Assembly: GCA_038042445.1 (NCBI GenBank)
Contig: JBBTED010000036.1
Location: 21,743-34,520, forward strand
From: Candidatus Firestoneibacteriota bacterium
GTDB taxonomy: Bacteria > Oederibacteriota > D2-FULL-39-29 > JBBTED01
DNA: 12,778 bases
Direction of reading: 5' to 3'
Shown here: one piece after another, positions 1 to 12,778 of the stretch
Layout of the letters: every line of letters begins with the position of its first letter
Position numbering within the stretch: the first letter of the stretch is position 1
Program-made: the position numbers and the translations under genes
The notes under the pieces: model-generated
What the model saw: only the letters and a program-made list of their open reading frames with translations
What the model was told of the DNA's origin: nothing
Databases searched by the model: none

Positions 1-129
1 GATGAAGAGTTAAGAAAACATATAAGTTATATTTTAAATAATTCAGTAAGAAAAGGGTTGGTTGATAACTGGGAGGATTATCTTTTTAAAGGGTCGTTGG
101 ATTTTGCGTTAGAAGAAATTATTGCATAA
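1..129 (+). mobile_element. 3' end of a REP-associated tyrosine transposase (RAYT, IS200/IS605 Y1 HUH family), truncated by the window start
   Basis: Frame 1 reads DEELRKHISYILNNSVRKGLVDNWEDYLFKGSLDFALEEIIA* (TAA 127-129). This resembles the RAYT C-terminal motif YIxxNPVxxGLVxxxxD(Y/W)xx(S), which includes the catalytic Tyr. A GTAG-type palindrome begins 4 nt after the stop. Only 42 codons are visible. Confidence 0.8.
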
Positions 130-133
130 AAAC

Positions 134-156
134 CGCAGGCTAAAGCCTGCGACTAC
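134..156 (-). repeat. REP palindrome copy 1 (GTAG-T-CGCAGGC-TTTA-GCCTGCG on the - strand), flanking the transposase
   Basis: + strand reads cgcaggc-taaa-gcctgcg-a-ctac: a 7-bp stem, 4-nt loop and GTAG foot on the - strand. The same unit recurs at 1842, 1894 and 2701. Confidence 0.85.
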
Positions 157-180
157 CAAGACAAAAATACAAATTTAAAA

Positions 181-456
181 ATGTTAAAAGAAAAAGATAA
201 AATAGGGCAGCATAAAAATGCTATTGGCAGGATTATTGAAGGGAATGCGTTTATTGTATTGCCTGAAAAAAATGTGTTGTGCAAAATTGATGAAACGGGG
301 ACTTTTATATGGCAGCAGTTGAATATTCCAAAGACTATAGAGGAATTAAAGATGGCTGTATGTGAAAACTTTGTGGTTGATGAAAAAACTGCGTATAAAG
401 ATTTAACGGATTTTATTGAATTATTGTTGGATAAGGAAATTTTAGAAATATTTTAA
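181..456 (+). CDS. PqqD-family peptide chaperone / stand-alone RiPP recognition element (RRE), 91 aa
   Basis: Size and pattern fit PqqD: three short beta strands (GRIIEGNAFIV..VLCKID), then ETGTFIWQQL..PKTIEEL...CENFVVDEKTAYKDLTDFIELLLDKEILE. It is adjacent to a radical SAM/SPASM gene. Confidence 0.9.
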   Translation: MLKEKDKIGQHKNAIGRIIEGNAFIVLPEKNVLCKIDETGTFIWQQLNIPKTIEELKMAVCENFVVDEKTAYKDLTDFIELLLDKEILEIF

Positions 457-461
457 AGACA

Positions 462-589
462 CTGGATTCCCGATTTGTCAGGCAAGATGCTTGACCTATT
501 GCATGTGGAAATGACACAAAAATGATTTTTTAACTTTTGTATGAATTATGATACAGTCGCAATTGCAAAATGGGGGTTATGAGACAATT
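462..589. repeat. Degenerate nested palindromic / REP / MITE-like remnants between the RRE and radical SAM genes
   Basis: An imperfect hairpin gtcaggca-aga-tgcttgac followed by ctat (477-499) sits between ctggattcccg (462-472) and ggaaatgac (507-515). Two related motifs, ttatgatacagtc (546-558) and ttatgagacaatt (577-589), follow. Each element is single-copy here, so the identity is tentative. Confidence 0.35.
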
Positions 590-598
590 TCTTAGGAT

Positions 599-1648
599 AT
601 GATTAAATTTGTTGAAGGAGAGCTTTGGGACGAGTTGCTTGAAGTTACACAGCAGAAAAACATACCTCTTTTTGCGATGTTAGAACTTACTTATGCTTGT
701 AATTTGAATTGTGTGCATTGTTACATACCGGATAAAAGCCATAATAATGATTTAACTACGGATGAAATAAAAAATATTATAGATGATTTGACAGATGCAG
801 GATGTATTTTTTTAACGCTAACAGGTGGAGAAGTATTTAAAAGGGATGATATTTGGGAGATACTGGAGTATGTGTATTTTAAAAAGTTTGCGTATCAGAT
901 TTTTACAAATGGTACATTTATTACAAATGAAGTAGTGGAAAAACTTAAAAATATTCATCCATGGGAAATAGGCATAAGCTTGTATAGTATGAACGAGGAT
1001 ATTCATAATAAAATAACAGGTGTGTCTGGATCTTTTAAAAAAACTGTCCAAAGCATACTAAATTTAAGAGAAAATAATATACCTGTTAGAATAAAAACAG
1101 TTTTAATGGAGCAAAATTTTGACGGGTATGAAGAAATACTAAAATTTGCTGATAAATTTGGAATAAAAGTGCATTTTGATTTTATCATTTCTCCTAAAAA
1201 CGATGGTGATAAATCACCTTTGAAATATAGGTTAAGTGAAGAAAAATATAAAATATTAATTTGTGATACAAGGATTTTTCCTGCGGAAAATGAGGCTAAA
1301 GAATCATCTAAAAAGGATAATATTTTGTGTCATGCAGGAAAAAATAGCTGTTCTATTTCTCCGTCTGGTGATGTGTATTCTTGTATTCAGATACCGGTAA
1401 AAGCTGGTAATATCAGAGAATCTTCATTTGTGGATATATGGAAAAATGGAAAAGTGTTAAATAAGATAAGAAAAATAACTGAAAATGAAGTTATATTATG
1501 TAATAATTGTTCTGTTGTTTCATATTGCAGTCGTTGTCCTGGACAGGCGTATATAGAAGATGGAAATATAAATGGACCGGCAAATATATTTTGTAGAATT
1601 GCAAAAATAAGGAAAGAGGAGGAAAAAATAAATGAAAGCAAAAATTAA
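599..1648 (+). CDS. Radical SAM/SPASM-domain peptide maturase (PqqE/AlbA-like), 349 aa
   Basis: CxxxCxxC motif (C34-NLN-C38-VH-C41), LTGGE, FTNGT and ISLYS..H...G..GSF core motifs. C-terminal SPASM cysteines: CHAG...GDVYSC...GNI...IW...CNNCSVVSYCSRCPG...C. Confidence 0.93.
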   Translation: MIKFVEGELWDELLEVTQQKNIPLFAMLELTYACNLNCVHCYIPDKSHNNDLTTDEIKNIIDDLTDAGCIFLTLTGGEVFKRDDIWEILEYVYFKKFAYQIFTNGTFITNEVVEKLKNIHPWEIGISLYSMNEDIHNKITGVSGSFKKTVQSILNLRENNIPVRIKTVLMEQNFDGYEEILKFADKFGIKVHFDFIISPKNDGDKSPLKYRLSEEKYKILICDTRIFPAENEAKESSKKDNILCHAGKNSCSISPSGDVYSCIQIPVKAGNIRESSFVDIWKNGKVLNKIRKITENEVILCNNCSVVSYCSRCPGQAYIEDGNINGPANIFCRIAKIRKEEEKINESKN

Positions 1649-1784
1649 AAAAGAAAAAAAAGTATATAAAAAGCCAAGCATAGTTTTTGAAAAAATATTT
1701 GAAACTTCTGCGCTTGCCTGTGGTAAATGTTCAAGTGGTCCTATTTCTCAGAAGGCTTGCAAGGGAAATCCAAAAACAAGTTGA
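1632..1784 (+). CDS. Putative RiPP precursor peptide, 50 aa: MKAKIKKEKKVYKKPSIVFEKIFETSALACGKCSSGPISQKACKGNPKTS (not in the ORF track)
   Basis: ATG 1632 to TGA 1782-1784, with AGGAGG at 1617-1622 (9 nt before the ATG) and a 17-nt overlap with the radical SAM gene. The Lys-rich leader carries YxxPxI, an RRE-binding-type motif, and the C-terminal part has three Cys (C30, C33, C43). Confidence 0.85.
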   Translation: MKAKIKKEKKVYKKPSIVFEKIFETSALACGKCSSGPISQKACKGNPKTS

Positions 1785-1809
1785 GAGGTTGTTCCATAAT
1801 TATGTTGTA

Positions 1810-1818
1810 TGGTATAAT
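1810..1818 (+). promoter_or_regulatory. Candidate extended -10 sigma-70 promoter (TGGTATAAT) upstream of the peptidase gene
   Basis: Exact TGnTATAAT at 1810-1818, with a weak -35 (TTGTTC, 1789-1794) 18 nt upstream. AT-rich context raises the chance of a random match. Confidence 0.45.
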
Positions 1819-1835
1819 TATCATTGTAAATTACA

Positions 1836-1922
1836 GTATTGGTAGCCGCAGGCTTTAGCCTGCGTATAGTACCAAGTCAGGCGGGAAAAAAATCGCAGGC
1901 TAAAGCCTGCGGCTACCAATAC
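1836..1922. repeat. Inverted REP doublet (REPIN/BIME-like): perfect 29-bp inverted repeats with a 29-bp spacer
   Basis: gtattggtagccgcaggctttagcctgcg (1836-1864) is the exact reverse complement of cgcaggctaaagcctgcggctaccaatac (1894-1922). Each arm has a GTAG foot and the internal 7-bp hairpin. Confidence 0.9.
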
Positions 1923-1962
1923 AAAATAAATACAAACCAATACATAACCAATACAAAATAAA

Positions 1963-2436
1963 TTGCAAAAAATGGAAAATCAAGAATTAAAACATAAATT
2001 AAAAAATGATGGGTATGCTTATATAAAGGTGCAGGGTGGAAGTATGCGGCCTTGGATAAAAAGTGGGAGTGTAGTTAAAGTGAATGCCATAGATACAGGT
2101 AGAATAAAAAGAGGAGATATTGTGTTGTATCAGGTGGAAGAACAATTTCTTGTGCATCGTGTTATAAAAATTCTTGTCCCTGCAAGTAGTAAGCAGGGAA
2201 ATAAATCTGAAAAAATATTTGTGATTGCAGGTGATAACAGGATAGATACTATAATTCATAAAATAAAAGAAGAACAGATTGTTGGTATAGTAAATTGTAG
2301 TTGCCGATTTATCGGCAAAAGTAGAATAAAGCGAATATTGGAATTATTTTTAGTTATGCCGATTCATTATATTTATATAATTGCGCGATTTATATGTTTG
2401 AATAAAAAATCCAATTCCCCCTTAGTCCCCCTTTAA
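1963..2436 (+). CDS. S24/S26-family peptidase (signal peptidase I-like, Ser/His type); start may be ATG 1972 rather than TTG 1963
   Basis: GGSMRP (catalytic Ser27), RGDIVLY, LVHRV (His65 at the general-base position), AGDNR and IVG boxes. There is no N-terminal membrane anchor, but a hydrophobic segment lies near the C-terminus. Confidence 0.85.
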   Translation: MQKMENQELKHKLKNDGYAYIKVQGGSMRPWIKSGSVVKVNAIDTGRIKRGDIVLYQVEEQFLVHRVIKILVPASSKQGNKSEKIFVIAGDNRIDTIIHKIKEEQIVGIVNCSCRFIGKSRIKRILELFLVMPIHYIYIIARFICLNKKSNSPLVPL

Positions 2437-2545
2437 TAAAGGGGGTAAAACCCTATTTCACTATGGAAATGATTCCATAGTGTATGGAAATGGTTCCATA
2501 GTTGTAGAGGTAAAATCCCCCTTAGTCCCCCTTTTTCAAAGGGGG
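2416..2545 (+). repeat. Two direct copies, exactly 100 bp apart, of a 30-bp hairpin repeat TCCCCCTTAGT-CCCCCTTT-NNN-AAAGGGGG
   Basis: Copies at 2416-2445 and 2516-2545 are identical except for the 3-nt loop (aat vs ttc) and have an 8-bp stem. The first copy supplies the last codons and stop of the peptidase ORF. Confidence 0.85.
2459..2502. promoter_or_regulatory. Tandem palindromes TATGGAA-N4-TTCCATA (x2, 21-bp period): candidate activator/operator sites
   Basis: Palindromes at 2462-2479 and 2483-2500; the first extends to cactatggaa-atga-ttccatagtg (2459-2482). They lie about 165-185 bp upstream of the predicted sigma-54 start site. The palindromes are certain; their function is inferred. 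Confidence 0.5.
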
Positions 2546-2627
2546 ATACAATTCATATGATTTGTCCTGATTTATCCTTTGTTTAAAAGGATTATTGAAG
2601 CAAAATAAAAAACATATTATGCAAAAG

Positions 2628-2644
2628 TTGGCACGATATTTGCA
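2628..2644 (+). promoter_or_regulatory. Sigma-54 (RpoN) -24/-12 promoter
   Basis: TTGGCACGATATTTGCA matches the consensus YTGGCACGRNNNTTGCW at every position, with correct GG-N10-GC spacing. It is oriented toward the giant ORF about 160 bp downstream. Confidence 0.85.
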
Positions 2645-2700
2645 TATAATATAGTAGTGGGGGAGAACTGTTTGGTAGTTGTAGTGGATTGAAAAAAAAT

Positions 2701-2729
2701 CGCAGGCTAAAGCCTGCGGTTACCAATAC
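2701..2729 (-). repeat. REP palindrome copy 4 (foot mutated to GTAA), right arm of a probably decayed doublet
   Basis: cgcaggctaaagcctgcggttaccaatac differs by one base from 1894-1922 and shares the upstream A-tract + t flank. ttggtagttgtag at 2672-2684 looks like a decayed left arm. Confidence 0.85.
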
Positions 2730-2763
2730 GTTTAGGATGACAAATATGACAAACCTGGTGAGA

Positions 2764-2792
2764 TTGACTTTTGGGGGAAATTGTATTATATT
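2764..2792 (+). promoter_or_regulatory. Candidate sigma-70 promoter TTGACT-N17-TATATT just upstream of the giant ORF
   Basis: -35 at 2764-2769 (5/6 match), 17-nt spacer, -10 at 2787-2792 (5/6 match). Confidence 0.55.
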
Positions 2793-2806
2793 ATATAGTA
2801 GAGGGT

Positions 2807-5800
2807 ATGAAAGTGAGAAATAAACTGTATTTCAAAGGTATATGTATTTCTTTTTTTCTTGCCTGGACAACTGTTCTGTTTGCAGGTACGAGAATTAAAA
2901 CAGTTGAGTATAGTTTTGGCAGTTATTACAGTGCTACTGATATTGCTACTGCTACTTCTTGGTCTCCTTCCAGTTTAACTTTATATATTCCAGAAAATAC
3001 AAGAACAATAAAATCCGCATATCTTGAATTTGAATGTAATACAATCGCAAATACAGCTGTTTCAAATATAGACATTATGTTTGATGCTGGTGCTTCTGCT
3101 TCTACTGTTCGTGATAGTATTACAGGAACTTATACTGCAATTACAGGTGAATGTATAAAAATTATTGCAAAAGCAGATGTAACGAGTTATTTAGCATCTG
3201 ATTTTGTTGGAACAACAAGCAAATTATATTCTGCATCAGTTACAGTTACAGGTCCTGGTACAAATGGTCATTCTTTAAAACTTTATATTACTTATGAATA
3301 TGGAGATACTTCAACAAGACAGATTAAAACTGTGAGATTTCCTCTTTTTTCTGATGTTAATATTGCAAGCAAATTAGCGGCAGTTGGAGCCGGAACTTAT
3401 AGTTTTACATACAATGCGGAAATCGCTGATTCAAATGTTGTTGTCCGTCAGCAGTGGTTTGAAATTCGTGGATACAGGCAATCCAGTGGTGTAGCTACAA
3501 ACAGTAGTATTAGTGTGAAGGTTCAAGGAGCAGTGACAGGTTCTAACACAATGACACTTCGCGGTGTATTAATTGACAGTTATGATTTTAGATTTCTTGA
3601 TCACCAGGGGAATACCGGTATTGAAGGATTTGCTATAAATACATCTCAGATTCTTGATATTACCAGAGTTCAGGGTAATACAAATTATTTGGGAGGAGAA
3701 TGTGTTGTTACTTATGAATATGATGATAGCTCTTTATGGAAAACAAAAACAGTCAGGTATTTTCTTGGACAGTTAATTAATGGTGGCGGTGGAAATATGA
3801 GCCAGAATATTTATTTGGGTGAATCTGGGATTGAAATTTTAAGAATGTATTCCCAGATTTATGGTTCTTTTGATTCAACAACAGCAACTAACTTACTTGT
3901 TGATTCATCTGTAAATGGATATTCTGTAACCCAAAGGGGATATTCATTACAAATAAGCGCTGCTTCTATATCAGGGTATACATTTTTCCACGATTTAGGA
4001 GAACAAAAAGCAAATTTTTTAAATGGCTCTCAGATTATTGTTGGAGTAAATAATGTTACAAATGCCGGTGGTCAGGGCACAGAACTTATAATCACTTACA
4101 AATATTCAGGTGAGTCTGCGGGCTATACAAATGATTACCGGGTTATTACAGGCCAGTCTGCAAATGGAACAGGCACAACATCCGCACAAACTTTTTCAGT
4201 ATATTTCCCAAGTTGGTATTCTCCACAGGATTTAGGTGTCCGAACTTTAAGAAGTTCGTGGTTTAGAGGAGATACTATAAGAAATGGCGCTACCGGCGAC
4301 CATACAACTACCCAGAATTTTAATGGTTTAAGTTCGCAGACAGTTACACATAGGACAGCAGTAGAATCATTTGCCGATTATGTCTTATATGGAAATGCAG
4401 GACAAATTACAACAAGCAGTGCTAATGCAACTGCTAATTATTCAATAAGTGTGAATACTGGAAGTTTTTCTGGTGTATCCGGAATTGTGTATACTTATGC
4501 AAAGCCACCAAATATTCCTACAAATTTAGCACAGTATAAATCTGATGGAACGACTTTAATTTCAACAGGGGTTTGGACAAATGAATCTACTGTTGTTTTG
4601 AAAATGACAATGACGAGTCCTCTGTCTTCTGATACTTTAACTCCGCAAATAGAAATTTTGCCTATTGGAACAGGTTTCACAGGAACACAAAATTATTCTG
4701 GTTCATTTGTGGCGTATTCAGGTTCTGGTGTTACAGGAACAGTGACAGTGACAGGACTTACTTCAGGAACGCAATATCACTGGCAGGCAAGAGTGTCTGG
4801 AACTAATGGTGTTGGTCCTTGGCAATCTTATCCAACACCTACTCCAAATGGTGAAGCAGAAGCAGATTTAGGAATTGATACGAGTAATCCCGGGATAACA
4901 GATACGCAAACAGGAGATGATACATGGAAGAATGTTTCTGGGACAGCATACAATGTTGATTTTTCTGATACAGGGAATTCGTTGTTATCTTATGCCCAGT
5001 ATACAGTATATTCAAATACAAATTTAACAGGGACAACTTTAAAAGATTGGACGAATATAGCGAGCAGTATAAATGCCTCTGATTATACGAATGATTGGGC
5101 TGTAGATTGGACGAGCTTACAACAAGGCACAAATTATGTGAGTGTTCGAGTGTATGATAATGCAGGGAATTGGGCAACACTTGTAGATCCGTTTTATATT
5201 AAAAAGGATGCAACAAATCCCGGTATAACAGATAATCAAACAGGAGATGATACATGGAAGAATGTTTCTGGGACAGCATACAACATAGATTTTAGTGACA
5301 CAGGGAATTCGTTGTTATCTTATGTACAATACACAGTATATTCAGGGGCAGGATTAACAGGTTCAACACTTAAAGACTGGACGAATATAGCGAGCAGTAT
5401 AAATGCGAATGATTACACAAATGATTGGCAGGTAGATTGGACAGCACTTCAACAAGGAACGAATTATGTATCAGTAAGAGTTTATGACAATGCAGGAAAT
5501 TCAGCAACACTTGTAGATCCATTTTATGTGAAGAAAGATACAACGAATCCTGTTATAACAGATCTTCAGACAGGAGATGATGTGTGGAAGAATGTTTCAG
5601 GAACGAGCTATAACATAGATTTTAGTGACACAGGAAATTCGTTATTATCTTATGCACAATACACAGTATATTCAAATACAAATTTAACAGGGACAACGTT
5701 AAAAGATTGGACGAATATAGCGAGTAGTATAAATGCGAGTGATTATACGACTGATTGGCAGGTAGATTGGGCGAGTTTACAACAAGGCACGAATTATGTA

Positions 5801-8800
5801 TCAGTGCGAGTTTATGATAATGCAGGAAATTCAGCAACACTTCTTGATCCATTTTATGTGAAAAAGGATGTAACAAATCCTGGGATAACGGATAATCAAA
5901 CAGGAGATGACACGTGGAAGAATACAAGTGGAACGAGCTACAACATAGATTTTACTGATACAGGGAATTCGTTATTGTCTTATGCTCAATATGTAGTATA
6001 TTCAAACACTAATTTAACAGGAAGTACATTAAAGGATTGGACGAACATAGCAAGCAGTATAAATGCGAATGATTATACAAACAACTGGCAGGTAGATTGG
6101 ACAGCACTTCAACAAGGAACGAATTATGTATCAGTAAGAGTTTATGACAATGCAGGAAATTCAGCAATACTTGTAGATCCATTTTATATTAAGAGGGATA
6201 CGAATAATCCGGGAATAGCAGATGTTCAATCTGGTGATGATACCTTCAAAACTGCTGGAGGAACGAATTATAATATCAATTTTTCAGATACAGGAGGTTC
6301 ATTACTTTCTTATGCCCAATATACTGTTTGGACAAATACAGAGCAAACAGGTGTGTTGCGCGTTGACTGGACGAATATAGCAAGCAGTATAAATTCAAAT
6401 GATTACACACAGGATTGGACCGTAGATTTTGCTTCGCTTGCACAAGGAACGAATTATGTATCAGTGAAAGTGTATGACAATGTTGGTAACTCGGCAACTT
6501 TAAATGATGTGTTCTATGTGAAAAGAGATACAAGTAAACCCGGTATAGTAGATACACAAACAGGTGATGACACATGGAAGAATTCATCAGGCACAAGTTA
6601 TAATGTTGATTTTAATGATAACCAGTCTTTATTATCTTATGTTCAGTATACTGTATTTTCAAACACAGCATTGACAGGAAGCACTTTAAAGGATTGGACA
6701 AATATAGCAAGTAGTATAAATGCGAGTGAATATACAGATAACTGGCAGGTGGATTGGGCGAGTGGACAGCAGGGAACAAATTATGTATCAGTTCGTGCGT
6801 ATGATAATATGAATAATTCAGACACACTTGCAGATGTGTTTTATGTCAAAAAAGATACAAACAATCCGACAATCACAGATAACCAGACAGGAGATGATAC
6901 CTGGAAAAATTCATCAGGCACAACTTACAATATAGATTTTTCAGATACAGGCGGTTCATTGCTTTCTTATGTGCAATATACTGTGTATTCAAATACAGGT
7001 TTGACGGGTTCTACACTTAAAGACTGGACAAATATTGCAAGCTCAATAAATGCGTCGGATTGGACAGACAATTGGCAGGTGGATTGGACGAGTTTGCAAC
7101 AGGGAACAAACTGGGTATCTGTGCGTGTGTATGATAATTCCGGAAATTGGGCAACACTTGTAGATCCATTTTATATCAAAAAAGATATAAATGTTCCGTA
7201 TGTAACTGATAATCAAACAGGAGACGATACTTATAGAAATTCATCAGGCACGAGTTACAATGTGGATTTTTATGATACAACTGGTGCAGAAAATTCACTG
7301 CTTTCTTATGTTCAGTATACAGTATATTCAAGTAGTAATATGACAGGAAGTACTTTGAAAGCATGGACAAATATAGCAAGCTCAATAAATGCAAGTGAGT
7401 GGACTTCAAATTGGCAAATAGATTTTTCAAGTTTGCAGGAAGGAACAAGTTATGTTTCAGTTAGAGTGTTTGATATTGTTGGAAATGGTGCAACACTTGT
7501 TGACCCATTTTATGTGAAAAAAGATGCTACACTTCCACAGGTTACAGATAATCAATTAGGTGATGATACCTGGAAAAAAACATCAGGGACTACTTATGAT
7601 ATAAATTTTTCTGATGCCGGAACTTCACTACTTGCGTATGCTCAATACACAATTTATTCAAGTCCGGGACAAACTGGTTCTACCTTAAAGGACTGGACGA
7701 ACATTGCCACAAGTATAAATGCATCAGATTATACAGATAATTGGCAGGTTGATTGGACAAGTTTGCAGGAAGGAACAAATTATGTGTCGGTGAGAGTTTA
7801 TGATAATGCAGGAAATTTTGCAAATTTGAATGATGTGTTTTATGTTAAAAAAGATACAAACAATCCAACAATCACAGATAACCAGACAGGAGATGATACC
7901 TGGAAAAATTTATCAGCCACAACTTATAATATAGATTTTTCTGATACATTATCTTTAATAAACAATGTGCAATATACAGTTTATTCAAATACAAATTTAA
8001 CAGGCTCAACCCTGATTGACTGGACAAATATAGCAAGCAGTATAAATGCGTCAGATTATACACAGGATTGGGCTGTGGATTTTGCATTGCTTCAGCAGGG
8101 AACTAATTATGTGTCAGCTCGTGTCTATGATAATTCTGGAAACTGGGCAACACTTCTTGATGTATTTTATGTGAAAAAAGATACAAGTGGTCCGACAATT
8201 ACGGATAATCAAACAGGTGATGATACCTTCAAAACTACAGGTGGCACTGTTTATAATATTGATTTCACAGACAACTTATCTTTGCTTTCTTATACACAAT
8301 ACACAATTTATACATCAAGTGGTTTAACTGGAACACAATTAAAAACATGGACAACTTTTGCAAGTAGTATAAATGCGAGTGATTACACGAATAATTGGCA
8401 GGTGGATTTTGGTGTGTGTCAGCAGGGAACAAATTATATTTCAGTTAAAGGTTATGATATTTCTGGAAATGTATCACAGACGAATGATATATTTTATGTT
8501 AAAAAAGATACAAACAATCCAACAATCACAGATAACCAGACAGGTGATGATACCTGGAAAAATTCATCAGGCACAGCTTACAATGTGGATTTTTCTGATG
8601 GAACATCTTTAATAGATACTATTCAGTATGCAGTTTATTCTAATACAAATTGGACAGGCACAACACTTATTGACTGGACAAATATAGCAACAGGTGTGAA
8701 TGCATCAAGTTATACGGACAATTGGCAGGTTAATTTTGCATCATTACAAGAAGGTACAAATTATGTTTCTGTTAAATTATCAGATTATGCAGGTTTGAGT

Positions 8801-11800
8801 AATACACTTGCAGATACGTTTTATGTTAAAAAAGATACAAATAATCCGGGTATAGCAGATAATCAGACAGGTGATGATACTGTTCGTTCTGTTCCTGGCA
8901 CAACATATAATGTGGATTTTTCCGATACAGGTAATTCGTTGTTGTCATATGCTCAATATACAGTATACTCGGGAACAAATTTTACAGGGACAACACTTAA
9001 AAACTGGACAAATATAGCGAGTAGTATAAATGCGAGTGATTATACTATAGATTGGAGTGTGGATTTCGGTTCATTAAATGCAGGTGCAACAAATTATGTA
9101 TCAGTGCGCACTTTTGACAATGCGGGAAATTCGGCAACACTTATAGACCCGTTTTATATAATAAAAGCAGCAGATCTGCCTTTAGTCACAGACAATCAAA
9201 CAGGTGATGATACATGGCGAACATCAAATACCGGAACCTACAATGTAGATTTTTCTTCTACAAGTGGATTTAATTTGGATTATTTTCAGACAAGAATAAT
9301 GACTTCAGCAAGCCAAGGTGGAAGCACTTTGCAGGATTGGATAACTGTTGCTTCAGGTATTGGAGCGATTGATTATACCAATAATTGGTCTATATTAGCT
9401 TCAACATGGTCAAGTTGTAATGAAGGCACAAATTATGTTTCTACTCGTGTGTATGATACTGATACACCAGTAAATTCTACAACTGTGAATGATGTATTTT
9501 ATGTGAAAAAAGATACGAGTAATCCGGGGATCACAGACAATCAAACAGGAGATGATGTATGGAGAACCGAAACACCTGGAACAACTACTTATAATGTAGA
9601 TTTTTCTGATACTACTTCTTTGCTTTCTTACGCTCAGTATACAGTTTATTCAAATACTAATTTCACAGGTAGCACTTTAAAAGATTGGACAAATATAGCA
9701 ACAAGTATAAATGCGTCAAATTATACAATTGATTGGCAGATAGATTTCGCTTCTTTGCAGCAAGGAACAAATTATGTGAGTGTTCGTGTTTATGATAATG
9801 CCGGTTTAAGTGCAACACTTGCAGATGTATTTTATGCGAAGAAAGATACTGATAATCCGGGGATCACAGATAATCAAACAGGAGACGATACATGGCGATC
9901 TACAAGTGGGACAACATACAATATAGATTTTTCTGATCCTGGAGTATCATTGCTTTCATACGCCCAATACACAGTTTATTCAAATACAAATTTAACAGGC
10001 ACTACCTTAAAGGATTGGACAAATATAGCAACAAGTATAAATGCATCAGATTATACAGATAACTGGCAGGTGGATTGGACTTCCTTACAGCAGGGAACGA
10101 ATTGGGTATCTGTTCGTGTGTATGACAATGCAGGAAATTGGGCAACACTGTTAGACCCATTTTATATAAAAAAGGATACACAAGGTCCGGTAGTTACAGA
10201 CAATCAGACAGGTGATGATATATGGAAAGATACTGCAGGAACAACATACAATATAGATTTTTCTGATTCATTATCTTTACTTAATAATGTTCAATATGCA
10301 GTTTATAGTGATACAGGCCTGACTGGTTCAACATTAAAAGACTGGACAAATATTGCTTCTGGTATAGGCGCAAGTGATTGGACAACAAATTGGCAGGTTG
10401 ATTGGGCTTCTCTTCAAGAAGGAACGAATTGGGTTTCTGTGAAGGCTTTTGACTACCAAAATAATTCTTCAACACTTGTGGATTCATTTTATATAAAAAA
10501 GGACACACAAGGTCCAACAATTACGGATAATCAAATAGGCGATGATACCTGGAGAAAATCACCTAATACAGTTTATAATATAGATTTCTCTGATACAAAT
10601 TCCCTGATTTCATACATTCAGTGGACAGCGTATACAAATACTGAGTTTACTGGTCTTACTCTAAAGGACTGGACAAATATAGCAACAAATGTTAATGCAT
10701 CATCTTATACAATAGATTGGCAGGTGGATTTTGCTGCTTTGCAGGAAGGCACAAGTTATATTTCTGTTCGCGCGTATGATAATCTTAATCACTGCACTAC
10801 ACTTATTGACCCATTTTATGTTAAAAAAGATGTTGGTTCACCACAGATTTCTGATGATCAGTTAGGTAGTGATATATGGATAAATTCATCAGGCACAACA
10901 TACAATATAAATTTCAGTGATATCGGCAATTCATTTCTTTCTTATGCCCAGTATGCGGTTTATTCTGATACAGGACAGACTGGTTCTACATTAAAAGACT
11001 GGACGAATATTGCAAGTTCTATAAATGCATCTTCGTATACAAATGATTGGCAAGTTGACTTTGTTTCATTACAGGAAGGCACAAATTATGTGTCAGTGAA
11101 GATTTTTGATAATGCAGGAAATTCAGCAACACTTATAGATGTATTTTATGTTAAAAAAGATGTAACTATTCCAAGTGTAACAGATAATCAGACAGGTGAT
11201 GATACCTGGAAAAAAATTGCAGGAACAAGTTATGATATAGATTTTTATGATAATCAGGGGCCAGCCGATAGGTCTAAATTATCTTATGTCCAGTATGCTG
11301 TTTATTCAGATACAGGGTTTACTGGTTCTACATTAAAAGATTGGACAAATATAGCAAGCTCTATAAATGATAATTCTTATACTACAAACTGGCAGATAGA
11401 TTTTGCAAGTGGGCAGGAAGGCACAAATTATGTTTCAGCACGTGTATATGACAATGCTGGAAATTCTGTAACACTTGCAGATTCATTTTATGTTAAAAAA
11501 GATACGCAAGGACCAACAATAACAGATAGTGAAACAGGTGATGATACGTGGAAGAATGTTTCAGGAACAGCATACAATATAGATTGGACAGATACAAAAT
11601 CTTTGCTTGATTATGTTCAGTATGCAATTTACAGTAGTATAAATCAGACAGGTTCAACCTTAAAGGACTGGACAAATATTGCTTCTGGTATAGGTGCGAG
11701 TGATTACACTACAAACTGGCAGATAGATTTTGCTGCATCAACAGAAGGATTTAATTATGTTTCTGTTCGCGGGTATGATAATTTGGGAAATGTTTCTACA

Positions 11801-12778
11801 CTTACAGATGCTTTTTATCTAAAAAAAGATACAGGATTGCCTTCTGGCATATGTTCACCGCAGTCTTATTCAAATCAATTAACTTTTAATGTGCCGTTTT
11901 CTGCATCAGATGCTGTTTCAGATATTTCTCAGGTGAAATTATATTATACAACAAGCTCAGGTTCTCCTTATGCGTGGACGAATTACGGTTCATTTATCAC
12001 AAGCCCTGTTTCATGGACTGCAGGTGGGCCTGGGAGTTATGGATTCAGAATAGTAGCTTTTGACAATGCAGGAAATACTGATGAAACTGATCCACCAGCT
12101 CCTGCAACATCTGTGGAGGGCACTACAATAATTGATACAACCTCTCCTTCTATAACAGACAATCAATCAGGAGATGATAATTGGAAAAATTCCAGTGGGA
12201 TGAGTTACAATATAGATTTTTCAGATACAGGTGGAAGTTTACTTTCTTATGCCCAGTATACAATTTATTCAGATACAGGTTTGACTGGTTCAACCTTAAA
12301 GGACTGGACAAATATAGCAACCAGTATAAATTCTGCAACTTATCAGGATAATTGGCAAGTAGACTTTGCAAGCTTGCAAACGGGCACGAATTATGTATCA
12401 GTCAGGGGGTTTGATAATTCCGGAAATTCAGCAACACTTGTGGATTCATTTTATGTGAAGAAAGATACAAGTGTTTCGGGAATCACAGATAACCAGACAG
12501 GAGATGATACATGGCGTTCTACAAGTGGCACGAGCTACAACATAGATTTTTCAGATACAGGTGGAAGTTTGCTATCTTATGTTCAATATGCAATTTATTC
12601 AAATACTAATTTAACAGGTTCAACATTAAAAGACTGGACAAATATTGCAATTAGCATAAATGCGAATGATTATACTGATAACTGGCAGGTTGATTGGGCG
12701 AGTTTGCAAACAGGAACGAATTATGTATCAGTTCGGGTTTATGACAATGCTGGAAATTCAGCAACACTTATAGACCCG
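2807..12778 (+). CDS. Giant secreted/surface repetitive Ig-like protein (putative adhesin), at least 3324 aa, 3' end outside the window; start may be GTG 2813
   Basis: Frame 2 stays in register from ATG 2807 to the last base. The ORF track lists no stop-terminated ORF in this frame, consistent with no internal stop. The N-terminus MKVRNKLYFKGICISFFLAWTTVLFA|GTRIK looks like a Sec signal peptide. The sequence is Thr/Ser/Asn/Asp-rich with tandem domains carrying DNAGN and D-T-x-x-P linkers typical of bacterial Ig-like repeats. Confidence 0.92.
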   Translation, partial: MKVRNKLYFKGICISFFLAWTTVLFAGTRIKTVEYSFGSYYSATDIATATSWSPSSLTLYIPENTRTIKSAYLEFECNTIANTAVSNIDIMFDAGASASTVRDSITGTYTAITGECIKIIAKADVTSYLASDFVGTTSKLYSASVTVTGPGTNGHSLKLYITYEYGDTSTRQIKTVRFPLFSDVNIASKLAAVGAGTYSFTYNAEIADSNVVVRQQWFEIRGYRQSSGVATNSSISVKVQGAVTGSNTMTLRGVLIDSYDFRFLDHQGNTGIEGFAINTSQILDITRVQGNTNYLGGECVVTYEYDDSSLWKTKTVRYFLGQLINGGGGNMSQNIYLGESGIEILRMYSQIYGSFDSTTATNLLVDSSVNGYSVTQRGYSLQISAASISGYTFFHDLGEQKANFLNGSQIIVGVNNVTNAGGQGTELIITYKYSGESAGYTNDYRVITGQSANGTGTTSAQTFSVYFPSWYSPQDLGVRTLRSSWFRGDTIRNGATGDHTTTQNFNGLSSQTVTHRTAVESFADYVLYGNAGQITTSSANATANYSISVNTGSFSGVSGIVYTYAKPPNIPTNLAQYKSDGTTLISTGVWTNESTVVLKMTMTSPLSSDTLTPQIEILPIGTGFTGTQNYSGSFVAYSGSGVTGTVTVTGLTSGTQYHWQARVSGTNGVGPWQSYPTPTPNGEAEADLGIDTSNPGITDTQTGDDTWKNVSGTAYNVDFSDTGNSLLSYAQYTVYSNTNLTGTTLKDWTNIASSINASDYTNDWAVDWTSLQQGTNYVSVRVYDNAGNWATLVDPFYIKKDATNPGITDNQTGDDTWKNVSGTAYNIDFSDTGNSLLSYVQYTVYSGAGLTGSTLKDWTNIASSINANDYTNDWQVDWTALQQGTNYVSVRVYDNAGNSATLVDPFYVKKDTTNPVITDLQTGDDVWKNVSGTSYNIDFSDTGNSLLSYAQYTVYSNTNLTGTTLKDWTNIASSINASDYTTDWQVDWASLQQGTNYVSVRVYDNAGNSATLLDPFYVKKDVTNPGITDNQTGDDTWKNTSGTSYNIDFTDTGNSLLSYAQYVVYSNTNLTGSTLKDWTNIASSINANDYTNNWQVDWTALQQGTNYVSVRVYDNAGNSAILVDPFYIKRDTNNPGIADVQSGDDTFKTAGGTNYNINFSDTGGSLLSYAQYTVWTNTEQTGVLRVDWTNIASSINSNDYTQDWTVDFASLAQGTNYVSVKVYDNVGNSATLNDVFYVKRDTSKPGIVDTQTGDDTWKNSSGTSYNVDFNDNQSLLSYVQYTVFSNTALTGSTLKDWTNIASSINASEYTDNWQVDWASGQQGTNYVSVRAYDNMNNSDTLADVFYVKKDTNNPTITDNQTGDDTWKNSSGTTYNIDFSDTGGSLLSYVQYTVYSNTGLTGSTLKDWTNIASSINASDWTDNWQVDWTSLQQGTNWVSVRVYDNSGNWATLVDPFYIKKDINVPYVTDNQTGDDTYRNSSGTSYNVDFYDTTGAENSLLSYVQYTVYSSSNMTGSTLKAWTNIASSINASEWTSNWQIDFSSLQEGTSYVSVRVFDIVGNGATLVDPFYVKKDATLPQVTDNQLGDDTWKKTSGTTYDINFSDAGTSLLAYAQYTIYSSPGQTGSTLKDWTNIATSINASDYTDNWQVDWTSLQEGTNYVSVRVYDNAGNFANLNDVFYVKKDTNNPTITDNQTGDDTWKNLSATTYNIDFSDTLSLINNVQYTVYSNTNLTGSTLIDWTNIASSINASDYTQDWAVDFALLQQGTNYVSARVYDNSGNWATLLDVFYVKKDTSGPTITDNQTGDDTFKTTGGTVYNIDFTDNLSLLSYTQYTIYTSSGLTGTQLKTWTTFASSINASDYTNNWQVDFGVCQQGTNYISVKGYDISGNVSQTNDIFYVKKDTNNPTITDNQTGDDTWKNSSGTAYNVDFSDGTSLIDTIQYAVYSNTNWTGTTLIDWTNIATGVNASSYTDNWQVNFASLQEGTNYVSVKLSDYAGLSNTLADTFYVKKDTNNPGIADNQTGDDTVRSVPGTTYNVDFSDTGNSLLSYAQYTVYSGTNFTGTTLKNWTNIASSINASDYTIDWSVDFGSLNAGATNYVSVRTFDNAGNSATLIDPFYIIKAADLPLVTDNQTGDDTWRTSNTGTYNVDFSSTSGFNLDYFQTRIMTSASQGGSTLQDWITVASGIGAIDYTNNWSILASTWSSCNEGTNYVSTRVYDTDTPVNSTTVNDVFYVKKDTSNPGITDNQTGDDVWRTETPGTTTYNVDFSDTTSLLSYAQYTVYSNTNFTGSTLKDWTNIATSINASNYTIDWQIDFASLQQGTNYVSVRVYDNAGLSATLADVFYAKKDTDNPGITDNQTGDDTWRSTSGTTYNIDFSDPGVSLLSYAQYTVYSNTNLTGTTLKDWTNIATSINASDYTDNWQVDWTSLQQGTNWVSVRVYDNAGNWATLLDPFYIKKDTQGPVVTDNQTGDDIWKDTAGTTYNIDFSDSLSLLNNVQYAVYSDTGLTGSTLKDWTNIASGIGASDWTTNWQVDWASLQEGTNWVSVKAFDYQNNSSTLVDSFYIKKDTQGPTITDNQIGDDTWRKSPNTVYNIDFSDTNSLISYIQWTAYTNTEFTGLTLKDWTNIATNVNASSYTIDWQVDFAALQEGTSYISVRAYDNLNHCTTLIDPFYVKKDVGSPQISDDQLGSDIWINSSGTTYNINFSDIGNSFLSYAQYAVYSDTGQTGSTLKDWTNIASSINASSYTNDWQVDFVSLQEGTNYVSVKIFDNAGNSATLIDVFYVKKDVTIPSVTDNQTGDDTWKKIAGTSYDIDFYDNQGPADRSKLSYVQYAVYSDTGFTGSTLKDWTNIASSINDNSYTTNWQIDFASGQEGTNYVSARVYDNAGNSVTLADSFYVKKDTQGPTITDSETGDDTWKNVSGTAYNIDWTDTKSLLDYVQYAIYSSINQTGSTLKDWTNIASGIGASDYTTNWQIDFAASTEGFNYVSVRGYDNLGNVSTLTDAFYLKKDTGLPSGICSPQSYSNQLTFNVPFSASDAVSDISQVKLYYTTSSGSPYAWTNYGSFITSPVSWTAGGPGSYGFRIVAFDNAGNTDETDPPAPATSVEGTTIIDTTSPSITDNQSGDDNWKNSSGMSYNIDFSDTGGSLLSYAQYTIYSDTGLTGSTLKDWTNIATSINSATYQDNWQVDFASLQTGTNYVSVRGFDNSGNSATLVDSFYVKKDTSVSGITDNQTGDDTWRSTSGTSYNIDFSDTGGSLLSYVQYAIYSNTNLTGSTLKDWTNIAISINANDYTDNWQVDWASLQTGTNYVSVRVYDNAGNSATLIDP
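4877..12778 (+). repeat. Intragenic array of 23 ~110-aa (327-345 bp) Ig-like repeats, the last cut by the window end, interrupted once by a different domain
   Basis: The DNQTGDDTW-type motif starts at 4901, 5231, 5561, 5891, 6221, 6551, 6878, 7208, 7547, 7877, 8204, 8531, 8858, 9191, 9536, 9869, 10199, 10526, 10853, 11183, 11525, 12158 and 12488. Approximate consensus: PGITDNQTGDDTWKNxSGTxYNIDFSDTGxSLLSYAQYTVYSNTNLTGSTLKDWTNIASSINASDYTxNWQVDWxSLQQGTNYVSVRVYDNAGNSATLVDPFYVKKDT. Confidence 0.95.

Follow-up and report, generated by a model that had tools for sequence, protein, structure and literature searches.

The window, the whole stretch of 12,778 nucleotides that was analysed, carries near its 5' end a four-gene radical-SAM peptide cassette (positions 181-2436), which is bordered upstream by a transposase-like fragment and downstream by the gene for a giant secreted protein. 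An ORF check returned four intact open reading frames, all on the plus strand, confirming that the cassette is real and that it consists, as a preliminary description of this DNA had it, of co-directional genes for a PqqD protein, a radical SAM/SPASM enzyme, a 50-aa peptide and an S24/S26 peptidase. The features are as follows.

1..129, plus strand: C-terminal end of an ORF resembling REP-associated tyrosine transposases (RAYT) (weak match to NCBIfam NF047646)
135..150, no strand assigned: REP hairpin GCAGGCT(AAA/TTT)GCCTGC (genome copy count)
181..456, plus strand: discrete PqqD-family RiPP recognition element (RRE), 91 aa (Pfam PqqD)
599..1648, plus strand: radical SAM/SPASM enzyme, 349 aa, without a fused recognition domain (Radical_SAM, SPASM)
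1617..1622, plus strand: Shine-Dalgarno sequence AGGAGG, ending 9 nt 5' of the peptide ATG (sequence read directly)
1632..1706, plus strand: predicted leader MKAKIKKEKKVYKKPSIVFEKIFET, with YxxP RRE-binding motif and FET cleavage motif (conservation, analogy with LPP)
1707..1784, plus strand: predicted 25-aa core SALACGKCSSGPISQKACKGNPKTS, then the stop codon (conservation)
1972..2436, plus strand: soluble Ser/His/Asp peptidase of S26B-like (archaeal/SipW) type, 154 aa counted from the ATG (TIGR02228)
2807..12778, plus strand: giant secreted repeat protein of over 3,300 aa, running off the contig end (ORF, signal-peptide-like N-terminus)

No transporter is found among the genes of the window, in agreement with the preliminary description; none of the further pathway genes that it suggested might lie upstream of the transposase was seen in the 10 kb upstream. 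When contigs from groundwater metagenome runs of three studies were compared with window positions 1-3000, parts of the locus, the peptide gene among them, recurred without differences. A sequence scan was uninformative for promoter-like sites (16, against 14.7 +/- 3.8 expected) and terminator-like sites (3, against 1.5 +/- 1.1 expected, two of them being REP hairpins on the minus strand).

The peptide ORF (1632-1784) has its own ribosome-binding site, AGGAGG, and overlaps the 3' end of the radical SAM gene by 17 nt. Judged by its conservation, the peptide gene is real, far beyond chance: homologous peptides occupy the same cassette in four of five related genomes of the same class, and a profile built from 25 members, searched against 1.84 billion proteins, gathered 907 representatives at E<=1e-3, with 322 of them at E<=1e-10. 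In the curated libraries the peptide matched no family of Pfam or NCBIfam and no PDB chain. The family signature comprises a leader Y..P....E.hFET, a core AL.CGK...C, and a Ser at the C-terminus; the Ser is present in 149 and FET in 124 of the 150 best representatives. In the window peptide the leader motifs are Y12-x-x-P15 and F23-E24-T25, with Y12, P15, and E24 conserved among the 25 family members, and its C-terminus reads ...PKTS. Across the 25 members the core does not vary at L28, C30, G31, K32, C43, or the terminal Ser, and in the 138 representatives with canonical spacing the core A, L, C, G, K, C, and S stand at 99-100%. By these alignments, conservation of the 22-25-aa core across phyla comes close to that of the leader (the commonest residue has a mean frequency of 0.64 in the core and 0.77 in the leader). 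The window core has three cysteines (C30, C33, and C43), two of them invariant across the family, and belongs to a 3-Cys CGKC subtype, found mainly in Elusimicrobiota, that makes up 11 of 84 motif-fetched peptides. The boundary between leader and core is placed after T25 by analogy with LPP and should be taken as predicted.

The PqqD protein matches Pfam PqqD (E 4.4e-12, 46.6 bits, cut-off 23.4) and aligns with the PqqD proteins of five related cassettes. Its best solved relative is the lasso RRE TbiB1 (5v1u; E 2.7e-7); against LppB (9x8z) it reaches only E 0.21. The radical SAM enzyme contains Radical_SAM (E 1.6e-25) and SPASM (E 6.1e-10) domains; its CX3CX2C cysteines (C34/C38/C41) and the seven SPASM cysteines (C244, C262, C301, C304, C310, C313, and C332) are invariant in the homologue alignment (A2), and its best solved relative is SkfB (6efn; E 5.5e-17). 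Comparison with the SPASM subfamilies, proposed earlier as a means of classifying the enzyme, placed it in none: no NCBIfam equivalog cut-off was reached, and the best match, NirJ2/AhbD, scored 167 bits where 500 are required. Because the enzyme matches no curated subfamily, thioether formation is a guess. A quick tree with long branches puts the 13 radical SAM enzymes whose partner peptides are of CGKC type together on one side of a branch with support 87; this grouping follows taxonomy and cannot serve as evidence of co-evolution.

The peptidase ORF (1963/1972-2436) matches Peptidase_S24 (E 2.9e-7) and, just above the cut-off, the archaeal-type signal peptidase I model TIGR02228 (52.6 bits, cut-off 51.85). 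Its GGSM...HR...GD motif and the residues S24, H62, and D88 are invariant in the homologue alignment. The protein has no N-terminal membrane anchor and ends in a hydrophobic C-terminal helix; its relatives are soluble proteins of 118 aa, and the C-terminal tail is kept in homologues with 73% and 56% identity. An AF2 model (pLDDT 72.6) gave SipA, SpsB, SEC11A, and LexA as best fold matches. A profile search returned 119 peptidase homologues, none of them labelled as Bacillota LPP-type or LppS-like, and the link to LppS is therefore one at family level only.

Two samples of loci document how these genes travel together. They were obtained with a narrower alignment and a degenerate DNA motif, a locus search with a single protein having returned no relative, and carry phylum or family labels of Acidobacteriota, Elusimicrobiota, Methylomirabilota, Armatimonadota, Planctomycetaceae, Binataceae, and one Pseudomonadota. 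In the first sample, 74 loci fetched via radical SAM homologues, 20 hold the peptide; the co-occurrence of peptide, PqqD, radical SAM enzyme, and S24/S26 peptidase, named as a check in the preliminary description, is borne out there, with the peptidase in 20/20 peptide-bearing loci, the kinase and PqqD each in 19/20, and the peptidase in 18/54 of the loci that have no peptide. In the second, 80 loci fetched by a degenerate DNA motif of the peptide, 76 hold a true peptide; among the 56 motif-fetched loci with at least 4 kb on both sides, a radical SAM gene is present in 37, the peptidase in 36, the kinase in 39, and PqqD in 42, so that about one third of the peptide genes (19/56) lie away from any radical SAM gene. 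The peptidase gene overlaps the peptide gene or lies within about 200 nt of it in most loci; in L019 the two are in frame.

We consider it probable that the cassette in the window is functional and is a reduced representative of a widely distributed, uncharacterised family of RiPP-type peptide-maturation cassettes, proposed to act as follows. The 50-aa precursor would be translated in coupling to the end of the radical SAM gene, and its YKKP leader motif would be bound by the PqqD protein. The radical SAM/SPASM enzyme would then modify the 25-aa core, most likely by forming at least one cross-link from C30 and C43 and, in this subtype, C33. In the presumed order of steps the soluble S26-type peptidase (S24/H62/D88) would next cut after F23-E24-T25, as LppS does in the LPP pathway (PMC13381572). 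Most relatives have two more enzymes that may decorate the peptide, an NTP_transf_5 enzyme and an HprK-like kinase whose probable target is the invariant Ser at the C-terminus. The earlier proposal of a PqqD protein and a SPASM enzyme combined with leader removal by a signal-peptidase-like enzyme thus gains support from gene co-occurrence and from the LPP precedent (PMC13381572).

The core chemistry could differ from that outlined above. Action of the radical SAM enzyme on the invariant C-terminal Ser or on Lys32, with the cysteines serving for disulfide formation or metal binding instead of forming thioethers, is an unlikely but arguable alternative modelled on MftC, which acts at the C-terminus of the mycofactocin precursor. 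The enzyme is similar over its full length to the mycofactocin maturase model TIGR03962 (residues 21-313, E 9.6e-42, 143 bits), no kinase-less locus, the window and L029 among them, departs from the C-terminal Ser, and the invariance of G31-K32 equals that of the cysteines. However, the TIGR03962 score lies under the cut-off of 265 bits, and NirJ2, AhbD, WgkB, and AlbA give similar scores below their own cut-offs, so that no reaction type is favoured; moreover, a kinase stands beside the peptide in most loci, and HprK-type kinases are known to target a C-terminal Ser (PMC6993621).

The set had been described as a near-minimal pathway; the comparison with relatives shows it to be a reduced form of a larger cassette and not a primitive one. 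In relatives the cassette is extended by the HprK-like kinase (in 5/5 related genomes); an NTP_transf_5 protein is frequent there, and some cassettes have an ABC exporter, the putative route of export. The kinase was not found in the window's genome, which is 90% complete, by protein query, five-member HMM, or tblastn; the copy in the window is a derived, kinase-less form. Neither the NTP transferase nor an MsbA-like exporter is in the window: an NTP_transf_5-like gene lies on contig C163, probably more than 25 kb downstream, and the sole homologue of a relative's ABC pair is on the unrelated contig C87. The kinase seems to have been lost at the spot now occupied by a REP/RAYT element, as the RAYT-like fragment (1-129; NF047646 E 8.6e-6, 25.7 bits, below the cut-off of 80) lies at the position where relatives carry the kinase gene; about 100 nt directly 5' of the fragment are N in L014. 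The REP hairpin has 114 copies in the 2.81-Mb genome and four in the window, the further ones at 1848-1863, 1895-1910, and 2702-2717, and summed depth is high at REP positions in the metagenome contigs.

As the kinase was not found here and is usual in relatives, the pathway here may be incomplete. We regard it as improbable that the cassette is a decaying remnant, four ORFs that make no finished product now that the kinase has been lost and REP/RAYT elements have moved in. Such decay would fit the failure to find a kinase present in 19/20 peptide-bearing loci and 5/5 related genomes, the RAYT fragment exactly at its position, the REP or other short repeats present in every intergenic gap, and the poor cleavage of unphosphorylated precursor by the LPP peptidase reported in PMC13381572. 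It is countered by four full-length ORFs with invariant catalytic residues, by the retained ribosome-binding site and overlap with the radical SAM stop, by other kinase-less loci (L029 in the sample fetched via radical SAM homologues and 17/56 motif-fetched loci), by close full-length homologues elsewhere (radical SAM enzyme 81%, peptidase 73% and 56% identity), and by a genome that is just 90% complete.

SipW is a dedicated signal peptidase for TasA. That the peptidase likewise serves the giant surface protein and not the leader is very improbable: its archaeal/SipW type, its hydrophobic C-terminal helix, and its position, in the window as in L015 and L065, directly 5' of a giant secreted protein are outweighed by the missing N-terminal anchor, the soluble 118-aa relatives, the tight linkage of peptidase and peptide genes in most loci, which holds also where the giant protein's N-domain family is missing, its presence in 20/20 loci with the peptide against 18/54 without, and the LppS precedent (PMC13381572).

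The giant protein is a recurrent neighbour of the cassette and only a candidate member of the pathway. In loci of Elusimicrobiota type the neighbour is a giant Ig-repeat protein with a common N-domain, and N-domains of this type lie beside the cassette or the peptide in L015, L065, L137, and L107 as well as in the window; outside the window's own contig, repeats of its giant protein occur on C163 alone, a contig whose first letters lie within a frame of 6,018 aa. Among the 19 peptide loci without a radical SAM gene, 12 hold a gene of one family of secreted proteins of 600-1,100 aa. An HMM of the acidobacterial big proteins did not match the window's giant protein, so the two families of neighbours are not demonstrably related. 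Many genomes also have extra precursor genes distant from the enzymes. On the reading of the locus as a working maturation cassette, it is possible, and put forward here tentatively, that the product is a conserved cofactor-like or structural peptide cooperating with large secreted surface proteins and not a variable antibiotic, and that a single set of enzymes acts in trans on several precursors, each of which would be matched with a surface protein and serve in a matrix or in adhesion. The conserved core, the giant secreted proteins, and the polysaccharide loci would then point to surface or matrix biology rather than antibiosis.

The cassette family appears unstudied. A literature search whose scope stopped short of bioRxiv supplements and subscription journals found no work uniting HprK kinase, radical SAM enzyme, and PqqD, none on SynChlorMet, and, as relevant LPP literature, a single paper. 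The closest known system is the LPP pathway of Bacillota, whose clusters encode LppA/LppB/LppK/LppS/LppN/LppD (Popov et al., Nat Commun 2026, PMC13381572). There, the archaeal-type signal peptidase LppS (S29/H68/D93) was shown by experiment to cut a YxxP...FET leader after T-1; it requires the recognition protein LppB, cleaves less when F-3, E-2, or T-1 (FET at -3 to -1) is mutated, and finds a poor substrate in unphosphorylated precursor. The supplement assigns Acidobacteriota peptidases with 'other' RREs to SSN cluster 3, left unstudied there. The window resembles LPP in its discrete PqqD-type RRE, in its precursor leader with YxxP and terminal FET, and in its soluble archaeal/SipW-type Ser/His/Asp peptidase, the predicted leader peptidase, whose S24/H62/D88 match LppS S29/H68/D93. 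Its relatives add the HprK-like kinase, the NTP_transf_5 enzyme, and the exporter, and the setting is likewise one of polysaccharides or surface structures, C163 holding the nucleotidyltransferase together with polysaccharide-type genes in synteny with L019. The window differs in a radical SAM/SPASM gene overlapping the precursor gene; 'radical', 'SPASM', and 'rSAM' have no occurrences in the main text of PMC13381572. With 22-25 aa the cassette core is short, and it is strongly conserved and bears Cys, where the LPP core is long and variable; core position +3 is Leu, against the phosphorylated Ser3 of LPP, and the invariant Ser is C-terminal. Compared with the LPP motif YxxPxVLxHQxIxFETxxS, the window leader is two residues shorter from P to FET and lacks HQ; the phyla are Acidobacteriota, Elusimicrobiota, and others instead of Bacillota, and the window's genome (90% complete) has no linked exporter and no kinase that was found.

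The phosphorylated lasso peptides paeninodin and pseudomycoidin (PMC6993621) share a B1-like RRE and a precursor ending in Ser and, with the window's relatives, an HprK-type kinase and an enzyme of NTP-transferase fold; the kinases PadeK and PsmK phosphorylate the C-terminal Ser, and PsmN adds hexoses. Unlike lasso clusters, the window has no ORF for a lasso cyclase or B2 cysteine protease and has a radical SAM enzyme and S26-type peptidase instead, and its PqqD protein scores far below the lasso models (NF033536, 29 against 80 bits; NF033530, 17 against 70).

The resemblance to SynChlorMet and GeoRSP that had been noted holds at superfamily level only, all scores being far under the cut-offs. 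An HprK-like protein, PqqD, and a radical SAM/SPASM architecture are shared with SynChlorMet, and all four Scm models match weakly (ScmD TIGR04248, 14.9 against 100; ScmE TIGR04250, 108 against 400; ScmF TIGR04251, 100 against 400; ScmC TIGR04249, about 11 against 125, scored on the relatives' kinase); the window has one radical SAM enzyme instead of two and adds the S26-type peptidase and a defined precursor. GeoRSP model TIGR04303 gives the enzyme 96.2 bits (cut-off 400). With sactipeptide and ranthipeptide maturases of SkfB, AlbA, and SCIFF/CteB type the enzyme shares a full seven-Cys SPASM domain and a presumed Cys-containing ribosomal substrate; the window RRE is a separate protein and not an N-terminal domain of the enzyme, and the scores are low (AlbA, 105 against 850; SkfB, 80 against 300; StsB, 88 against 625). 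The mycofactocin precursor carries a characteristic C-terminal motif; the window precursor ends differently, in ...PKTS, and the enzyme is under the MftC cut-off.

If the proposed mechanism is true, the cassettes define an unnamed peptide-modification family of 907 sequence clusters, and the kinase-less four-gene set would be a natural minimal system for the radical SAM and peptidase steps alone. Set beside the known systems, the family would be a new combination of modules, in which radical-SAM chemistry is coupled to the recently described module of the LPP and lasso pathways that removes the leader in signal-peptidase fashion and phosphorylates Ser.

In the window (contig C36, 21743-34520) the four cassette genes are co-directional, and their ORFs read at precisely the coordinates assigned to them in the preliminary description:

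181-456, + strand: PqqD-family protein of 91 aa (Pfam, E 4.4e-12)
599-1648, + strand: radical SAM/SPASM enzyme of 349 aa (Radical_SAM E 1.6e-25, SPASM E 6.1e-10)
1632-1784, + strand: peptide MKAKIKKEKKVYKKPSIVFEKIFETSALACGKCSSGPISQKACKGNPKTS, with AGGAGG and an overlap with the radical SAM gene
1972-2436, + strand: S24/S26 peptidase of 154 aa counted from ATG (TIGR02228, invariant triad)

The cysteines of the CX3CX2C motif (C34, C38, and C41) and the seven SPASM cysteines of the radical SAM enzyme are invariant among 11 homologues compared. None of the NCBIfam equivalog cut-offs is reached by the enzyme; its top scores are for NirJ2/AhbD (167 bits, cut-off 500) and MftC (143 bits, cut-off 265), and the WgkB, AlbA, ScmE/F, and GeoRSP models score lower. 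The enzyme is without an N-terminal recognition domain, and a discrete PqqD protein therefore makes sense. The peptide had been described as overlapping the enzyme's stop, and the two genes indeed share 17 nt; AGGAGG ends 9 nt 5' of the peptide ATG. The peptidase, on record as an identical 154-aa protein (P0279), finds its best curated match in the archaeal-type signal peptidase I family TIGR02228 (52.6 bits, cut-off 51.85), and its assignment as a Ser/His S24/S26 enzyme is borne out by GGSM (Ser24), HR (His62), and GD (Asp88), which are invariant in six homologues. An AlphaFold2 model of the peptidase (pLDDT 72.6) matches SipA, SpsB, human SEC11A/C, and LexA/UmuD. True signal peptidases have an N-terminal membrane anchor, which the window peptidase lacks; its hydrophobic C-terminal helix is kept in homologues at 73% and 56% identity. 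The cassette genes themselves are intact.

Among 40 relatives searched, five (genomes of the same class) hold an orthologue of the radical SAM enzyme, in the gene order HprK-like kinase, PqqD, radical SAM enzyme, S24/S26 peptidase, peptide; in four of the five the peptide is 54-59% identical to that of the window. A profile built from 25 peptides and run against 1.84 billion representative proteins gave 907 matches at E<=1e-3 and 322 at E<=1e-10. Lengths among the top 150 run from 48 to 141 aa, and the matched segment is mostly C-terminal; 149 of them end in Ser, and the core is preceded by FET in 124, by FEV in 10, and by FVT in 9. Among the 145 of these that fit the core pattern, the core is 22 aa long in 135 and carries two Cys in 144. 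The consensus from 138 peptides with canonical spacing is KPYQKPAFRYERVFET/MALSCGKVSPTQGQCRFNRKTS, in which Y, P, E, F, A, L, C, G, K, C, and S are each conserved at 99-100%. Judged by this conservation, the peptide is a real gene and a member of a large family. With a predicted core of 25 aa (CGKC..GP..Q..C), the window peptide is of a three-Cys subtype that accounts for 11 of 84 peptides retrieved by motif. In a quick, unfinished tree with long branches, one branch has all 13 radical SAM enzymes that accompany this subtype on the same side, a pattern that follows taxonomy, and the window enzyme clusters with its class relatives.

The co-occurrence of peptide, PqqD, and peptidase proposed in the preliminary description was found in samples drawn from both directions. 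A pattern scan with the radical SAM alignment yielded 74 loci from many phyla, which are not independent and have Acidobacteriota as the majority, and HMMs of the relatives were run on them. The peptide is present in 20 of the 74, accompanied by the peptidase in 20/20, PqqD in 19/20, the kinase in 19/20, and an NTP_transf_5 gene in 4/20; the peptidase also occurs in 18 of the 54 loci without a peptide of the window's family. For the reverse sample, a degenerate DNA pattern for FET..AL.CGK was run over genomes, giving at least 124 stretches, of which 80 loci were fetched; 76 contain a true peptide, and seven have two or three peptide genes. Where at least 4 kb is available on both sides (n=56), the radical SAM enzyme is found in 37 loci, the peptidase in 36, the kinase in 39, and PqqD in 42, which implies that about a third of the precursor genes are additional copies located apart from the enzymes.

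In one comparison locus (L019:2705-3196) the peptide and the peptidase ORF share a reading frame that no stop interrupts between the two, and the peptidase ORFs of two others (L017:1037-1480 and L018:1062-1544) have remnants resembling a leader at their ends (…MKKTLKTRKKPEKRG and …MKKAGKR); either peptidase and precursor are fused in some cases, or translation begins at an internal start. Loci of Nitrospiraceae (L056, L058, L062-L064, L066-L068, L073, and L074) and one locus of Verrucomicrobiota (L076) have a related architecture, with an HprK-like kinase, as many as three radical SAM/SPASM genes, and, in most, an S24/S26 peptidase. A peptide of the FET..AL.CGK family was not detected in these loci, which look like a sister system nearer the SynChlorMet layout.

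The surroundings of the window cassette differ from those of its relatives, and include the following features:

L014:5187-7508 (contig C36, upstream of the window): TMEM260-like/TPR protein of 773 aa, just upstream of the RAYT remnant
L014:7676-9805 (contig C36): B12-binding radical SAM protein of 709 aa, just upstream of the RAYT remnant
135-150, 1848-1863, 1895-1910, and 2702-2717: REP hairpins flanking the cassette gene units, with no ORF broken
2417-2431 and 2517-2531: CCCCCTTAGTCCCCC...GGGGG hairpin element, present twice
2807-12778: giant repeat protein, running off contig C36 after 3,336 aa
25618-51433 of contig C163 (same genome): NTP_transf_5-like gene, response regulator, ExeA-like ATPase, and further ORFs

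The kinase was not found in a search of the source genome (completeness 90.2%). Its position in the relatives corresponds here to the end of an ORF resembling a REP-associated tyrosine transposase (RAYT; window 1-129), which about 100 masked bases precede. The suggestion that further cassette genes might lie upstream of this transposase gained no support from the 10 kb upstream, which contain unrelated genes (a B12-binding radical SAM protein, the TPR/TMEM260-like protein, and an AAA ATPase); the relatives gave no sign that the first two are linked to the cassette. The genome (2.81 Mb) carries the REP hairpin GCAGGCT(AAA/TTT)GCCTGC at 114 sites. Four of these are in the 2.8 kb with which the window begins, next to the end of the RAYT-like ORF, and other short repeats occupy the gap between the PqqD and radical SAM genes and positions 2401-2600. 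In the 2501-2600 bin, the summed contig depth is above 16,000 for one groundwater run and in the thousands for the others, so that the CCCCCTTAGTCCCCC...GGGGG element is a very abundant short repeat common to many organisms there; the peptidase ORF ends within its first copy. Elsewhere in the genome, radical SAM/SPASM paralogues are clustered on contigs C159 (21241-24452; two, one with an in-frame TAA), C18 (1011-7590; three), and C88 (1197-2192), and C149 has a second PqqD-like ORF; the genome may contain additional peptide-modification loci.

The repeat unit of the giant protein is roughly 95 aa, as estimated by eye from the translation. Contig C163 opens within an open frame (1-18054) that codes for 6,018 aa of these repeats, which are confined to C36 and C163, and the NTP_transf_5-like gene follows the giant gene there. 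The genes 3' of it are syntenic with those after the cassette in L019 (response regulator 67% identical, ExeA-like ATPase 59%); the further ORFs of C163 were read as polysaccharide genes from sequence alone, the Pfam scan having covered their L019 counterparts. Shared repeats and synteny together indicate that C36 and C163 are probably adjacent, with a single gene, more than 9,300 aa long, probably split between them by the assembly; this gene would then part the cassette from its usual neighbours.

Large secreted proteins adjoin the peptide in other loci as well. L015 (54% identity), L065 (35%), L137 (39%), and L107 (40% over 260 aa) have a homologue of the giant protein's N-terminal domain next to the cassette or to the peptide. 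Acidobacteriota have a different one: a conserved secreted protein of about 620-1,100 aa adjoins the peptide gene; no Pfam match was found for four members tested, and no relatedness to the window's giant protein was detected. Of 76 peptide loci among L094-L173, 48 carry this protein, which in 20 of them lies immediately upstream in the same orientation; 12 of the 19 peptide loci without a nearby radical SAM gene have it. The same family occurs at L020, L023, L024, L026, L029, L031, L032, L035, L037-L039, and L042, and also at "orphan" peptide genes, for which maturation enzymes are absent within 6 kb.

The closest parallels are with the linear polyphosphorylated peptide (LPP) clusters of Bacillota, whose reported precursors have the leader motif YxxPxVLxHQxIxFETxxS (PMC13381572, Popov et al. 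2026). As described there, these clusters also encode a discrete RRE (LppB), an NTP-transferase, and an exporter; the HprK-like kinase LppK polyphosphorylates core Ser3, and the archaeal-type signal peptidase LppS (S29, H68, and D93) cleaves after T-1 only with LppB present. Mutation of F-3, E-2, or T-1 impairs this cleavage, and unphosphorylated precursor is cut poorly (PMC13381572). The window peptide shares YxxP and FET with the LPP precursors so described, and its peptidase has the same triad as LppS at nearly equal spacing; by analogy, the boundary between leader and core would follow T25. The setting of C163 and L019 likewise recalls the polysaccharide loci in which LPP clusters are reported to lie. 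Unlike the LPP clusters, the window cassette includes a radical SAM/SPASM enzyme, and none is mentioned in the main text of PMC13381572. The window family also differs from LPP in its short, conserved, Cys-bearing core and in its phyla, and the window peptide in having Leu at core position 3 and a spacer from P to FET that is two residues shorter. Acidobacteriota peptidases with "other" RREs appear as SSN cluster 3 in a supplementary table of the same report and are not pursued there.

Against solved RREs, the window PqqD protein matches the lasso RRE TbiB1 (E 2.7e-7) more closely than PbaB1 (0.095) or LppB (0.21). In phosphorylated lasso peptides, the C-terminal Ser is reported to be the target of HprK-type kinases, with PsmN placing hexoses on the phosphate (PMC6993621); on this precedent, the invariant C-terminal Ser is the likely kinase target in the window's family. 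By the features that define them, the LPP, SCM, GeoRSP, mycofactocin, and lasso families do not include the cassette; the likeness to SynChlorMet and GeoRSP noted in the preliminary description does not extend to membership, and the radical SAM scores are under the cut-offs. Its central proposal, a RiPP-type cassette with leader removal by a signal-peptidase-like enzyme, is upheld in essentials by the peptide family, the co-occurrence, and the analogy to LppS. On its gene content the cassette is a real RiPP-type system with a predicted S26-type leader peptidase, in which a recognition, cleavage, and phosphorylation module of the LPP/lasso kind is joined to a radical SAM/SPASM enzyme and to a core with conserved Cys residues.
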